Positions 46,881-50,584 of a stretch of DNA of 64,000 bases are shown here, one piece after another (positions within the stretch are counted from its first letter, which is position 1; every line of letters begins with the position of its first letter). Below the pieces are notes generated by a model. That model ran no database searches and was not told the DNA's origin. It saw nothing but the letters and a program-made list of their open reading frames with translations. Made by a program: the position numbers and the translations under genes. The stretch covers positions 1,165 to 65,164 of the forward strand of contig JBHIET010000005.1 in assembly GCA_046760785.1 (NCBI GenBank), in the 5' to 3' direction. This DNA is from Anaerolineae bacterium (lineage in GTDB: Bacteria > Chloroflexota > Anaerolineae > B4-G1).

Positions 46881-48593
46881 GTGACGGAACTCATTCGTGA
46901 CCGGGTCGCAGCATTAATTGTCGCGGGACTGCGGGCTGCACAGGAGGAGGGTGCGTTACCCTACTTCGAGGTGTCGGACATTGTAGTGGAGCACCCACGT
47001 CAGTCCGAGCACGGTGACTATGCTTCGCCTATCTGCCTGCAACTGGCGCGGGACTTCGCTGAGCTCAGTCGAGGCGAGGCGCGTATGCCGCCCCGTGAGA
47101 TTGCCGCACGGGTGGTCGAGCACCTTCCACCAGCCCCGTTTGTGGGCCAGGTCGAAGTGGCGGGACCTGGATATATCAACGTCACACTGGATGCCTCCTG
47201 GCTAGCTGCCCAGGTTGAGGCCATCCTGGGTGCTGGGGAGACCTTCGGCAACTTGGAGATCGGTCGCGGGCAGAAGGTTCAGGTTGAGTTTGTGAGCGCC
47301 AATCCCACCGGCCCCACTCACATCGGCGGTGTCCGCAACGCGGTCATTGGCGATACCTTGGCCAATGTGCTGGCGGCAGCGGGCTTCGAAGTCGAGCGAG
47401 AGTACTACGTCAACGACGCTGGTTCCCAGGTGCGCACGTTTGGGGAGAGCATCTACGCCCGCTATGCCCAGGCCCTGGGCCAGGACGAGCCGTTCCCGGA
47501 GAACGGTTACCATGGCCACTACGTCGTGGAGATAGGGCAGCAAATGGCCCGGCGATATGGCGATCGGTATCTCAACATGCCTCGCCGGGAGGCCGTGTGC
47601 GTGCTGGGGGATGAGGGTATAGCACGCGTCGTCAGTGAGGCGCAGCGGGACCTGGCGGCCCTGGGGGTAGAGTTCGACATTTGGTTCCACGAGAAGAGCC
47701 TGTACGAAAGCGGGCTGTTCGACCGTGTCCTTCAGATGCTCCAGGACAAAGGCTACATTACGGAGCGCGATGATGCGGTCTGGTTTACCTCCCCCGACCT
47801 GGATGCGGACGCGGTCATCATCCGCTCCCCCCAGGTCATACCGGAACCGGATGAGCGGCCTACCTATTTCGCTTCTGACATCGCTTACGTGTGGAACAAA
47901 CTGGTCAAACGCGGCTTCGACCGGGCGATCTACGTCTGGGGGGCCGACCACCACGGGGATGTGCCTCGAGTGAAGGCAGCGGCGTCGGCGTTGGGGCTTG
48001 ACCCCGAGCGGGTGGTGATCATCCTCTATCAGATGGTCAATCTCAAGCGAGGTAGCGAGGACGTGCGCATGTCGAAGCGTGCGGGAGAATTCATCACCTT
48101 GCGCGAATTGCTCGACGAGGTTGGCCCGGACCCGATTCGCTTCATGCTCCTCACGTGCACTGTGGATGCGACGATAGACTTTGATCTGGATCTGGCGGTT
48201 GAGCAATCGGAAAAGAACCCGGTATACTACGTTCAATACGCGCACGCCCGTATCGCCAGCATGCTGCGCTACGCCGTTGACCTGGGGTGGGATTTGGAGG
48301 CTCCGGGCGACGTTTCGCTGCTGACCCACGAGAGCGAGCTGGCGCTGATCCGCAAGATGCTGGAGTTGCCGGAGGTCATCGCACTGGCGGCGACGCAGTT
48401 GGCCCCGCACCACCTCACTCTCTACGCCAAGGACCTGGCTGCCGTTTTCCACGCTTTCTACCGGGACTGTCGCGTCGTCGTGCCGGAGGAGCCAGAGCAA
48501 ACCCGGGCACGGCTGATGCTGACGCGGGCGGCCCGACTGGCACTGGCGCGGGCGCTGGGATTGCTAGGGGTGAACGCACCGGAGCGGATGTGA
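46881..48593 (+). CDS. argS: Arginine--tRNA ligase
   Basis: HIGG motif ([12 protein letters not shown]), MSKR motif, 570 aa, GTG start. Confidence 0.9.
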
Positions 48594-48639
48594 ACCGGAT
48601 GCTGGTTGTCGGATGCTCTCGCAGGAGGTGGCGCGGCCG

Positions 48640-49515
48640 ATGGGATTGAAGCCTGATCATTGGATTCGCAGAATGGCGCTGGAGCAACGGATGATTGAGC
48701 CGTTCGTGGATGGGCAGGTACGCGACGGCGTCATATCTTACGGGCTTTCGTCTTATGGCTACGACATCCGCGTGGCCGACGAGTTCAAGATTTTTCAACC
48801 GGAGATCACGGCGGCCAAGCTCTCCGACGTGCAGTGCGCCTACGTCGCAGGGATGCTGGATGCACAGGGGCAGATTGGCTATGCTACCTCGGAGCCGCAG
48901 GGACGGCCAGGTCTGGCACTCGTCATCGCCAGCGACGACCGCCAGATGTTGGAGGGACTGCAGGCGATACTGGGCACAGGAGCGCTGCGGGAGTCGCATA
49001 ATGGGTGTAGCGGGTTGATCGTGAGCAAAGCGGCTGATGTGCAGTACATCCTCTCACAAGTGTGGCCGTACCTGACACACCGCCGTGACGTGGCTTCCCG
49101 CGCATTGGCCGAGTTGAAGTCAAGTAAGTCCATCGTCGTGGACCCTAAAGATTTTGACGCCGCTTCCTTCGTTGACTTCAAGGGAGAGGTGTGCATTATC
49201 CCGCCCAACTCGTTTGCGCTGAGCCGCACAGTAGAGTACTTCCGCATTCCGCGCAGTGTGTTAACAGTTTGCCTGGGCAAAAGTTCATACGCTCGTTGCG
49301 GCATCATCGTCAACGTGACGCCCTTCGAGCCGTCTTGGGAAGGGTACGTGACCCTTGAAATCAGCAACACCACCCCACTGCCAGCCAAGATTTATGCCAA
49401 TGAGGGTATCGCCCAAGTTCTCTTCTTCGAGGCAGACGAGGAGTGCGAGGTCTCCTACGCCGATAAGAAAGGTAAGTACCAAGGCCAGCAATCCATTGTT
49501 CTGCCCCGGCTGTGA
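48640..49515 (+). CDS. dcd: dCTP deaminase carrying an in-frame ~105-aa insertion
   Basis: [37 protein letters not shown] // [58 protein letters not shown]. An RBS (aggagg) precedes the ATG at 48640. Confidence 0.9.
48808..49125 (+). mobile_element. LAGLIDADG homing-endonuclease-like domain inserted in frame in dcd (no intein blocks)
   Basis: [15 protein letters not shown]...[27 protein letters not shown]...[32 protein letters not shown] parallels the I-CreI fold order. Confidence 0.6.
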
Positions 49516-49517
49516 CG

Positions 49518-49546
49518 TTGACGAGCCAGAGAATCCCGATTATAAT
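49518..49546 (+). promoter_or_regulatory. Sigma70 promoter TTGACG-17-TATAAT for tRNA-Val
   Basis: The -10 ends 8 nt before the mature tRNA 5' end. Confidence 0.55.
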
Positions 49547-49554
49547 TGGCCTAT

Positions 49555-49628
49555 GGGCGGTTAGCTCAGTTGGTCAGAGCGCCTCCCTTACAAGGAGGAG
49601 GTCACAGGTTCGAGTCCCGTACCGCCCA
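49555..49628 (+). tRNA. tRNA-Val (anticodon TAC)
   Basis: Acceptor stem GGGCGGT/ACCGCCC, D-arm tagctcagttggtcagagc, anticodon stem-loop cctcc-cttacaa-ggagg, and T-arm caggttcgagtcccg. CCA is not encoded. Confidence 0.9.
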
Positions 49629-49634
49629 TTGCAG

Positions 49635-49663
49635 GTGCCGGGTGCTTCTGAAGCACCCGGCAC
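49635..49663 (+). terminator. Perfect 13-bp hairpin downstream of tRNA-Val
   Basis: gtgccgggtgctt-ctg-aagcacccggcac, followed only by tt. Confidence 0.5.
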
Positions 49664-49786
49664 TTGGACGAAGTTCGGGCGCTAGCCCTATGCACTCAGG
49701 GATTCACGGCTCCAGCCAGTGCTGGGCCGGCGCCTACGCCTGATGCCGTCCGAGCGCGTTGAATCATTCACGTTTGGTTAGCCTGG

Positions 49787-49815
49787 TTTGCCCTGGCGAA
49801 GCTCGTGGGTATAAT
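49787..49815 (+). promoter_or_regulatory. Candidate promoter TTTGCC-17-TATAAT for the MNT/HEPN pair
   Basis: -35 at 49787-49792 and -10 at 49810-49815. Confidence 0.4.
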
Positions 49816-49890
49816 ATGTGTTAAGAGGGCGGCAGCGGGGGGCTGCGATCTCCTTTGAGCAGAGTCTGGGTCGTCAACTTGGGAGAGATC

Positions 49891-50247
49891 ATGATAGATG
49901 TTCGTGGGTTGTTGGCAGAGAGGGCGGAGCATCGTGCCCTGCTGACGGAGGAGGCGGAGCGCATCGCGATCCAGTTGCGGGAACTGGGAGCACGTAAGGT
50001 TGTTCTCTTCGGCTCCGCCGCCCGCGGAGAGGCCAACGTCCACAGCGACCTGGACTTCGTCGTTGTGATGCCGGGCGAGCAAGGCTTTGCTTACTGGTCT
50101 CGCCGGTTGTACGGCGAAATTGATCGGCGGGTGGCAGTGGATTTCCTGCCTTACAACGAGCGGGAGTTTGCCGAGGCTCAGCGTCACAGCCGCCTGGTCC
50201 GCCACGCCCTGCGCACGGGGAAGGTTCTCTATGAGAAACCCAGTTGA
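49891..50247 (+). CDS. Nucleotidyltransferase (MNT) domain protein, antitoxin-like
   Basis: VVLFGSAARGEANVHSDLDFVVVM. Confidence 0.75.
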   Translation: MIDVRGLLAERAEHRALLTEEAERIAIQLRELGARKVVLFGSAARGEANVHSDLDFVVVMPGEQGFAYWSRRLYGEIDRRVAVDFLPYNEREFAEAQRHSRLVRHALRTGKVLYEKPS

Positions 50248-50584
50248 TGAAGCGCACCGCTGGCTGATCCATGCTCAGGACGAATATCAAGATGCTGAAG
50301 ACCTGAGAGAGCGCGGTCGTTTCTACCTGGCTCTCTTTCACTTTCAACAGGCGGCCGAGAAGGCATTGAAAGCCTTTCTTTACGCCCATACCGACGACCG
50401 CCGCGTCTTTTTCACCCATTCCGTTCTAGAGTTGGTTCAGGCTGCCGCTGCTCTTGACTCCACCTTGGCTGATCTGGGGAAGGCTAGTCGCCTGGATCAG
50501 TACTATATCCTTACCCGCTACCCAAACGGTCTCCCAGGGGGAGTGCCGTCCCGTTTCTATACCGATCCTGAGGAGGCTGCCTAG
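50231..50584 (+). CDS. HEPN domain protein, toxin-like
   Basis: MRNPVDEAHRWLIHAQDEY...AAEKALKAFL...RVFFTHS (Rx4H). It overlaps the MNT gene by 17 nt. Confidence 0.75.
   Translation: MRNPVDEAHRWLIHAQDEYQDAEDLRERGRFYLALFHFQQAAEKALKAFLYAHTDDRRVFFTHSVLELVQAAAALDSTLADLGKASRLDQYYILTRYPNGLPGGVPSRFYTDPEEAA

Follow-up and report, generated by a model that had tools for sequence, protein, structure and literature searches.

An in-frame LAGLIDADG domain in the dCTP deaminase of Anaerolineae bacteria, apparently unspliced, inactive as a nuclease and repeatedly lost

Homing endonuclease genes are thought to persist in protein-coding genes only by means of a self-splicing intron or intein. A locus in a 64,000-nucleotide stretch of a metagenome-assembled genome (MAG) of an Anaerolineae bacterium (GCA_046760785.1, contig JBHIET010000005.1; the whole stretch is called the window below) raises the question of whether such a domain can be carried inside a housekeeping enzyme with neither of them. 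The gene concerned is dcd, which encodes the deoxycytidine triphosphate (dCTP) deaminase Dcd, and it is interrupted in frame by a segment related to the LAGLIDADG endonuclease I-CreI. The history that we favour, and hold to be probable with the reservations given below, is that a LAGLIDADG domain was inserted once in frame, is dead as a nuclease, has been inherited vertically and is held only by selection for its fold and its compatibility with the enzyme.

On the + strand, the listed open reading frame (ORF) at 48613..49515 counts 300 residues from its first ATG. Relatives share the start at 48640 (ATG; MGLKPDHW), from which the ORF counts 291 residues plus a stop, the upstream in-frame ATG at 48613 adding 9 residues. 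The initial annotation had described this 291-residue ORF as longer than usual dCTP deaminases, and the ORF is indeed present with a net insertion of 107 residues. Both the Pfam family DCD (PF22769) and TIGR02274, an NCBIfam equivalog (152 bits for a cut-off of 92.8), match dcd in two stretches about 105 residues apart. Minus the insert, the protein can be aligned from one end to the other with 4dhk, a dCTP deaminase of solved structure (E=5.5e-94, residues 1-182 versus 3-190). In insert-free relatives and in phage dcd, the canonical loop reads FKIF-TNVxSA(I/V)-VDPK, and the insert consists of 114 residues (Q53-V166) in place of the seven-residue loop TNVxSA(I/V). Alignment with orthologous dcd genes, which had been proposed as a check, defined these borders and found empty-site relatives with the canonical loop. 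The domain coordinates first proposed (48808-49125) correspond to T57-S162, within Q53-V166, and all the peptides quoted at that time are present. The features are listed here with their supporting data (P and L numbers are our labels for proteins and loci; pLDDT, predicted local distance difference test; dN/dS, ratio of nonsynonymous to synonymous substitution rates).

48640..49515, + strand: complete dcd ORF with the insert (ORF listing, relatives' loci, TIGR02274 at 152 bits).
48640..48795, + strand: N-terminal host segment, residues 1-52, with the last strand ...ADEFKIF (DCD/TIGR02274; aligned to 4dhk 3-56; dN/dS 0.05).
48796..49137, + strand: inserted segment Q53-V166, 114 residues, made of the junction QPE..., the LAGLIDADG domain and ...KSIV (compared with the canonical alleles P0184, P0213, P0239 and phage Y5; dN/dS 0.19).
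48826..49122, + strand: folded LAGLIDADG core, residues 63-161 (AlphaFold pLDDT 80-95; top 45 Foldseek matches).
48844..48870, + strand: motif VAGMLDAQG, residues 69-77 (alignments; motif variants across 94 sequences).
48814..49128, + strand: window equivalent of the segment deleted in L035 relative to L036, residues 59-163, 315 nucleotides (conspecific strain comparison).
49138..49512, + strand: C-terminal host segment, residues 167-291, VDPKDFD...LPRL (DCD/TIGR02274; 4dhk; dN/dS 0.06).

The nature of the insert was addressed by sequence and fold comparisons. Used as a single sequence in the hidden Markov model search initially proposed, it stayed below the Pfam thresholds (LAGLIDADG_3, E=0.13; LAGLIDADG_1, E=0.18; 13 bits versus thresholds of 22.5-23.1), whereas profile and fold searches were significant. 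With phmmer, the best support among PDB sequences came from I-CvuI (E=4.7e-4), which aligns with nearly the whole insert (insert 11-105 versus 11-112). A profile built from seven orthologous inserts retrieved I-CvuI at 3.6e-7, a single-chain I-MsoI at 1.4e-8 and many I-CreI entries near 1e-4. When 1.84 billion representative proteins were searched with a profile, 667 matched at E<=1e-3; the best relatives outside dcd are free-standing one- or two-domain proteins which exceed the Pfam LAGLIDADG_1/_3 thresholds and have canonical D/E motifs. Some of these free-standing relatives are only about 117 residues long (P0264, P0269), which indicates that the insert has the size of a complete mini-LAGLIDADG protein.

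An AlphaFold2 model computed from a 107-sequence alignment of dcd proteins gave residues 61-160 of the insert a pLDDT of 80-95, with the topology helix-strand-strand-helix-strand-strand-helix-helix (helices 63-76, 101-111, 131-144 and 149-161; strands 77-82, 91-98, 115-118 and 124-128). In Foldseek searches of the PDB, the first 45 matches were all I-CreI, I-CvuI or I-MsoI (probability 1.0, E about 1e-7, template modelling score about 0.6 normalised to the longer targets). The insert spans I-CreI residues ~5-110 and has no counterpart of that enzyme's C-terminal helices. The LAGLIDADG helix AYVAG and the small helix-packing residues are invariant, and the Asp at motif position 6 is near-invariant, with three exceptions among 94 inserts. 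Collectively, the phmmer match, the seven-sequence profile, the confident insert model and the Foldseek matches support the initial assignment to a single-motif, I-CreI-like LAGLIDADG domain.

Is this domain removed from the enzyme or from its messenger? In Pfam, the families Hint, Intein_splicing and Hint_2 gave no match for the insert at E<=10, none was obtained in NCBIfam, and none of the 107 aligned members matched a Hint or intein family at E<=1. The junctions do not show the intein pattern of an N-terminal Cys/Ser and a C-terminal His-Asn before Cys/Ser/Thr; no conserved terminal His-Asn was found in 32 aligned loci, the insert ending in K-x-K-S. Furthermore, the LAGLIDADG fold fills residues 63-161 of Q53-V166, so that a splicing domain of about 130 residues could not be accommodated. 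Concerning the RNA, a scan of 48300-49900 with Rfam at a permissive E-value returned tRNA-Val only, and the dcd reading frame is continuous across the insert in all loci. The proportion of synonymous differences (pS, Nei-Gojobori) is alike in the insert and the host parts, at about 0.63, which indicates no nucleotide constraint beyond the protein code, and no alternative reading frame, such as the hidden ORF of the ShiLan element, stays open across the loci. The absence of an intein and of a group I intron ORF, both proposed initially, is thus in agreement with all these searches. We infer that the insert does not undergo protein-level splicing and that the domain remains in the mature Dcd. 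The interrupted gene nevertheless encodes a functional enzyme, since the host segments of insert-bearing alleles evolve with a dN/dS of 0.05-0.06.

The distribution of the insert was determined by a scan of one genome per GTDB species, in which it was found in 29 species genomes, all of them MAGs labelled Anaerolineae, Anaerolineales, Thermoflexia or Chloroflexota. The species-scan loci, five loci fetched via protein look-ups and the window make a set of 35 loci, all of which hold the insert at one and the same site within an intact ORF of 289-291 residues (a contig end truncates one of them); such a recurrence of an intact, in-frame insert goes far beyond chance. Similarly, insert-bearing proteins of 289-293 residues represent 94 of the 120 top matches to the spliced enzyme. 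The insert occupies one site in 94 of the 107 top-match proteins that were aligned, and 94 of the 101 clade alleles compared retain it at full length. The initial annotation had considered that its reading would fail if long dcd variants with an unrelated insert were the norm in this clade; long variants do indeed prevail there, and the extra segment is the LAGLIDADG domain itself.

Several lines of evidence point to vertical descent. The GC content at third codon positions is 0.776 in the insert and 0.765 in the host gene, and the two covary across genomes (r=0.68). Amino-acid distances of insert and host correlate (r about 0.6), the insert evolving about 3.3 times faster, and no pair of genomes was found in which the insert is closer than its host gene. 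Two old insert subtypes, 'LDAQG' and 'AIDxLG', broadly follow the host lineage, and a third, more diverged copy (P0256, locus L037) has identical junctions. When the adjacent ArgS is used to build a tree, genomes with the insert group together in a clade within which identities fall to 54-58%, and L040 (44%), with the canonical site, is the outgroup. We conclude that the insert was gained once in an Anaerolineae ancestor and was then inherited vertically. Horizontal transfer of dcd together with its insert was considered for L007 and L010, which are basal on the ArgS tree, and was ruled out by their adenosine deaminase, about 75% identical as in other close relatives. In these two loci, ArgS (gene 1073-2737 in L007) is about 57% identical to that of the window, the insert 80-82%, dcd about 90% and the flanking adenosine deaminase about 75%; their argS is probably a xenologous replacement in place which preserved the synteny. 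In the L037 locus, a direct duplication of about 55 nucleotides lies in the LAGLIDADG helix region (~1640-1800), where …GCGGCTACrTCGCCGGGCTGATTGACGGGCAAGGCTATGTCGGCAT… occurs twice, and dcd has at least two frameshifts, either from assembly error or because this copy is becoming a pseudogene.

The integrity of the gene deserved attention, as the deposited protein of the window genome (P0003, 'MAG: dCTP deaminase [Anaerolineae bacterium]') has only 189 residues and starts inside the insert, at the internal Met of ...DRQMLEGLQ (window 48946-49515). In at least seven other MAGs, dcd has been called with 176-189 residues from differing internal Met residues, leaving 360-440 nucleotides uncalled after argS, and the full 291-residue ORF is intact in all of them. 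The internal Met which serves as annotated start is not conserved among the aligned loci, which makes an arrangement in two polypeptides unlikely. A split gene in relatives, considered when a query with the insert only returned just fragments and truncated calls, was ruled out by the DNA of the loci and by the many full-length proteins of 291 residues. When the 55-residue N-terminal piece was used as query, only short proteins were obtained, and the examples on long contigs are ordinary frameshifted dcd genes showing the canonical junction.

What has become of the nuclease? In the window, the counterpart of I-CreI's catalytic Asp20, a metal ligand at motif position 8, is Gln76 (codon 48865-48867). 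The initial annotation had noted this Gln in the motif LDAQG and predicted a dead nuclease, a prediction strengthened by the clade, where most copies have Q, R, K, H, L, M or S at this position. According to the profile alignment, I-CreI Gln47 is replaced by Ser and Arg51 by Gln in the window, both positions varying across the clade. For the β1-β2 hairpin, the net charge averages -0.9 (from -3 to +2), versus +5 in I-CreI. With the catalytic acid and the basic charge lost and the DNA-contact sheet hypervariable, the endonuclease is, as judged from these residues, most likely dead in the clade, and DNA binding has presumably been lost too.

Despite this apparent inactivation, the domain is not eroding freely. 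Nei-Gojobori dN/dS values were computed over 32 distinct loci, in which synonymous sites are near saturation, and the ratios are, if anything, overestimates. The host segments stand at 0.05-0.06 and the whole insert at 0.19, a value indicating that the insert is translated and constrained and is not a neutrally decaying remnant. Within the insert, dN/dS is 0.11 for helix α1 with the N-linker and again 0.11 for helices α3-α4 with the C-linker, 0.30 for helix α2, 0.45 for hairpin β1-β2 and 0.41 for hairpin β3-β4 (hairpins overall, 0.41-0.46). Along the strands, the inward positions (IGY, LxL, LxV) are conserved, and the outward, once DNA-facing positions show 7-10 or more residue types per column. 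Selection therefore appears to act on foldability and not on a new function. The initial annotation had left the choice between a domesticated and a decaying domain: neutral decay is not borne out, a new function is not demonstrated, and the outcome is a domain both constrained and dispensable.

That it is dispensable, at least in some backgrounds, follows from the short alleles found among the closest host relatives, which are 184-189 residues long with one of 205, and are of two kinds. Six have the canonical TNV loop and cluster outside the insert clade on the host tree. Seven others keep remnants of the insert, each with its own breakpoint, and are scattered among insert-bearing lineages (a slash marks the junction).

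P0142: QPEVTAAKL/VDPK
P0144: KPEITAS/SKSIVVDPK
P0156: FQ/LKSSRSIVVDPK
P0171 and P0181: QPEVTAS/IVVDPK
P0242: QPD/KSIVVNPK
P0249: RPEVTA/KSIVVDPK
P0229: partial deletion, 23 residues kept

The scar-bearing locus L041 (P0242) has the same add-argS-dcd-murF/alr synteny as its relatives and is nested in the ArgS clade. The most direct case is the pair L035 (P0171) and L036 (P0207), which are 98.1% identical over 1.2 kb and differ by one clean deletion of 315 nucleotides (residues 59-163), with no microhomology; this is a presence/absence polymorphism within a species. Altogether, at least six independent in-frame deletions removed the domain. Loss is imprecise, the viable deletions falling in the linkers. 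In the partial deletion P0229 (205 residues), the first 23 insert residues are followed by an unrelated ESRSGES and then by SVVDPK; the folded core is gone and the N-linker and half of the LAGLIDADG helix remain.

How did the domain reach this loop? A second host lineage provides an indication. P0345 (318 residues, Logan contig L042) has a host dcd part only 57% identical to that of the window, itself 89% identical to insert-free Anaerolineae dcds, and it is interrupted at this very site by an insert whose junction residues are also shared (EFKVF-QPN... and ...RAS-IVVDP). This insert passes the Pfam LAGLIDADG_3 threshold (24.4 bits) and, compared along its whole length, is 30% identical to that of the window (E=3e-18). 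Its LIDGEG motif is intact, its hairpin is basic, and a Lys stands where I-CreI has Lys98. The nearest insert-free relative of P0345 is the dcd of phage Y5, which has the canonical loop TNIHSAV. Two distant hosts that share a related element at one site, and that are separated by many empty-site lineages, show the classic signature of site-specific homing, and the Anaerolineae insert may thus have originated by past homing, as far as this single short contig allows. The shared QP... and ...SIV residues look like element-borne or co-converted flanks. At the insertion site, the canonical dcd target DNA contains …TTCAAGATHTTCACCAAYGT…, and a scan for pseudo-palindromes found at most 14 self-complementary positions out of 22, a weak symmetry. 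On L042 (398-2181), the P0345 dcd lies amid same-strand ORFs of 78, 92 and 84 residues which match no Pfam family, a setting that suggests a phage or another mobile context. No match was obtained in an IMG/VR scan with P0345 or in cultured phage genomes, and no cultured phage dcd was found to cover the insert; the dcd of Thermus phage phiLo, for which a match seemed to reach into the insert, was rejected, as it has no LAGLIDADG insertion there.

From these data, the following history can be proposed. A mini-LAGLIDADG gene of I-CreI type (~105-110 residues), specific for the codons of the dcd loop, would have invaded this loop in frame, without intron or intein. The invasion would have been tolerated, the loop after ...EFKIF lying on the surface and the domain folding independently, and the insert would have been translated as an internal domain of Dcd which stays in the mature enzyme. 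Following fixation in the ancestor of a large Anaerolineae clade, no empty targets would have been left, leading to the loss of catalysis and DNA binding. Selection would since have kept the domain folded and compatible with an essential enzyme, and rare in-frame deletions from linker to linker would repeatedly have removed it.

Other explanations have to be weighed against this history. That the locus is an assembly or annotation artefact of a MAG might be suspected from the 189-residue call in the window genome and from the fact that all source genomes are MAGs; this can practically be dismissed, being refuted by the uninterrupted ORF of 289-291 residues in 35 loci from independent assemblies and 94 protein clusters (NCBI, JGI, ENA, Logan), as well as by the lack of conservation of the annotated internal Met. 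A splicing event of an unrecognised type (a novel minimal intein, processing by a protease or an event at the RNA level) would yield a Dcd of normal size and would fit a host enzyme functional despite 107 additional residues; a Ser follows the natural deletion breakpoint, and the ShiLan case illustrates how hard such insertions are to classify (PMC11855218). We nevertheless consider it very improbable, as no Hint or intein match, C-terminal His-Asn, Rfam intron or excess synonymous conservation was found, the fold leaves no room for a splicing domain, and the scar breakpoints vary by lineage, which identifies them as DNA deletions and not as a fixed splice. It is also improbable, if less strikingly so, that the insert is still an active homing endonuclease in some lineages, dimerising between Dcd subunits and cutting empty dcd alleles. 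In many LAGLIDADG enzymes (I-OnuI, I-DmoI, I-AniI), a Glu at motif position 8 is compatible with catalysis, and this residue is present in the 'LDAEG' sub-clade (L024-L027, L030 and L031); P0345 has its LIDGEG motif, its Lys and its basic hairpin, and alleles with and without insert coexist within one species. However, no two species of the Glu sub-clade share the same DNA-facing hairpin residues, yet the dcd target itself varies very little; L028, which belongs to this sub-clade, has Lys; no insert is more similar than its host gene; and the insert-minus alleles of the clade are scars in which the site has been destroyed, as opposed to empty sites of the canonical kind. The sub-clade being nested in the tree, its Glu is most simply read, by parsimony, as a single-nucleotide reversal from Gln at an unconstrained site.

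Domestication is a more serious rival, possible though in our view doubtful. The dead nuclease would now serve Dcd or the cell as an oligomerisation module (helix pairing linking trimers into hexamers or larger assemblies), as a regulatory or allosteric appendage or as a non-specific nucleic-acid tether. In its favour are the purifying selection (0.19 overall, 0.11 in α1 and α3-α4), the invariant AYVAG helix and packing residues, the near-invariant linkers and the full length retained in 94 of 101 clade alleles while ArgS diverged to about 55%. It has to contend with at least six independent clean losses, one of them within a species, and with the β sheet, the sole large solvent-exposed surface, being the least conserved part and having lost its basic charge. 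A conserved core and helices with a variable sheet face are what fold maintenance alone would produce, and the conserved add-argS-dcd-murF/alr neighbourhood reveals neither a partner nor a regulated context. A broader scenario, which we regard as unlikely, combines several of these elements: a family of mini-LAGLIDADG elements would spread without any splicing element into the FKIF/TNVxSA/VDPK loop, oligomerisation of the host would pair two domains, P0345 would be a live example, and the Anaerolineae copy would have been co-opted, via its conserved helix and linkers, for the quaternary structure or regulation of Dcd.

The favoured history, a dead domain kept for its fold, must itself be qualified on several grounds. 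A passenger without function would be expected to show a higher dN/dS than the 0.11 of the helices; residues in the linkers are nearly invariant, including at positions expected to be exposed; and the domain is kept at full length (289-293 residues) across a deep clade, despite viable clean deletions. These low levels of variation and this retention would also fit a positively selected role. The Glu at motif position 8, confined to one sub-clade, weighs against it too, as do the single short metagenomic contig from which P0345 is known and the sequence-only basis for an unspliced domain. Finally, the structure prediction initially proposed as a check gave a confident fold for the insert, but in the full-length model the host part reached a pLDDT of only 30-50, probably owing to a shallow alignment (all sequences at least 76% identical).

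Known systems help to situate this case. I-CreI, I-CvuI and I-MsoI share with the dcd insert their fold, topology and motif helix, and the N-terminus of the insert aligns with that of I-MsoI. These enzymes are single-motif homodimers from group I introns of chloroplast 23S rRNA genes, whereas the dcd insert is neither intron-encoded nor free-standing, and it differs from I-CreI by the missing C-terminal helices, Gln for Asp20, Ser for Gln47 and an acidic or neutral hairpin in place of a basic one. WhiA (DUF199), a bacterial transcription factor derived from degenerate LAGLIDADG domains, is catalytically dead and is likewise a dead LAGLIDADG fold kept by a bacterial host; it is, however, a free-standing protein with two domains and a helix-turn-helix and has a conserved DNA-binding role, while the dcd domain lies within an enzyme and shows no conservation of its DNA-binding face. 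Fungal mitochondrial rps3-LAGLIDADG fusions (PDB 3qqy, 4yhx), whose chains were among the weaker PDB sequence matches, are also in-frame host fusions without intein, but they are organellar, contain two-domain I-OnuI-like endonucleases in the C-terminal part of rps3 and many are still active.

The rps3 genes had initially been cited as the only intein-less in-frame precedent, a view to be amended since actinophage DNA methylases (the Taj_79 group, nine sequences from one phage cluster) have been described with a lone LAGLIDADG for which neither intein nor intron was found (PMC9957025; PMC11855218). Among described cases, this one comes nearest to dcd. Like the dcd insert, this LAGLIDADG is in frame, forms its own domain in the predicted structure and diverges along with its host gene. 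It resides in a phage accessory gene and keeps a typical motif, whereas dcd is a chromosomal housekeeping gene in at least 29 species and its insert has lost the catalytic residue; for dcd, there is in addition evidence of selection, of repeated deletion and of a second host lineage. The ShiLan element is comparable in being read through in frame with the gene that hosts it, as neither intron nor intein, but there the endonuclease uses a different frame and what is read in frame is an unstructured loop (PMC11855218), while in dcd the in-frame peptide is the endonuclease domain. In the same enzyme family, the dcd of cyanophage vB_AphaS-CL131 contains a self-excising intein (HintN and HNH_3, 351 residues) after residue 132 (PMC6293099), and the window insert lies after residue 52 and has no Hint domain; dcd is thus a recurrent target of homing elements. 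No mention of LAGLIDADG together with dCTP deaminase was found in the literature searched, and among the cases that could be found, the present one is the first apparently unspliced in-frame LAGLIDADG in a bacterial chromosomal housekeeping gene.

Relatives of the insert were also observed embedded in or fused to other proteins. P0299 (637 residues) is an N6_N4 DNA methylase with a LAGLIDADG domain at 130-222, between methylase segments; P0363 (349 residues) is a Dam methylase with a LAGLIDADG domain after residue 127; and P0360 (323 residues) combines an insert-related domain with an endonuclease resembling archaeal Holliday resolvases. Lone LAGLIDADG domains inside DNA methylases may therefore be commoner than the single published phage case. 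On L038, a short, AT-rich and phage-like contig, the free-standing P0269 (118 residues, IMDGEG; 96-452) overlaps by 4 nucleotides the next ORF (449-730), which has a DPPW motif and was read as MT-A70-like, a family unconfirmed by search. This would be another endonuclease-methylase association, the methylase being identified from the DPPW motif only.

In the window, argS (46881..48593) ends 47 nucleotides upstream of dcd and a tRNA-Val(TAC) gene lies downstream (49554-49629). Directly past this tRNA, on the + strand, are a nucleotidyltransferase of the NTP_transf_2 family (49855-50247, E=7e-10) and a HEPN-domain protein (50087-50584, E=8e-19), whose ORFs overlap by about 160 nucleotides as listed from the first possible start, the true overlap being possibly smaller. 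By its domains, the pair is predicted to be a toxin-antitoxin arrangement of the MNT-HEPN type. In syntenic relatives, the pair is absent from that position and murF/alr is found there instead.

Unspliced in-frame insertion, earlier documented for organellar rps3 and one group of phage methylases, now appears to occur in a housekeeping enzyme of free-living bacteria. One practical consequence is that NCBI annotations of such genomes systematically truncate dcd to 176-189 residues starting inside the insert. The enzyme also offers domain-insertion engineering a useful natural example, a domain of about 100 residues being tolerated in a trimer of the dUTPase fold. The comparative series comprises dozens of insert-bearing species, empty sites of the canonical type, at least six independent scars, a within-species polymorphism and a distant copy with an intact motif; with it, the late stages of the homing cycle become directly testable, from fixation and inactivation to the retention of the domain under structural selection and its imprecise loss.

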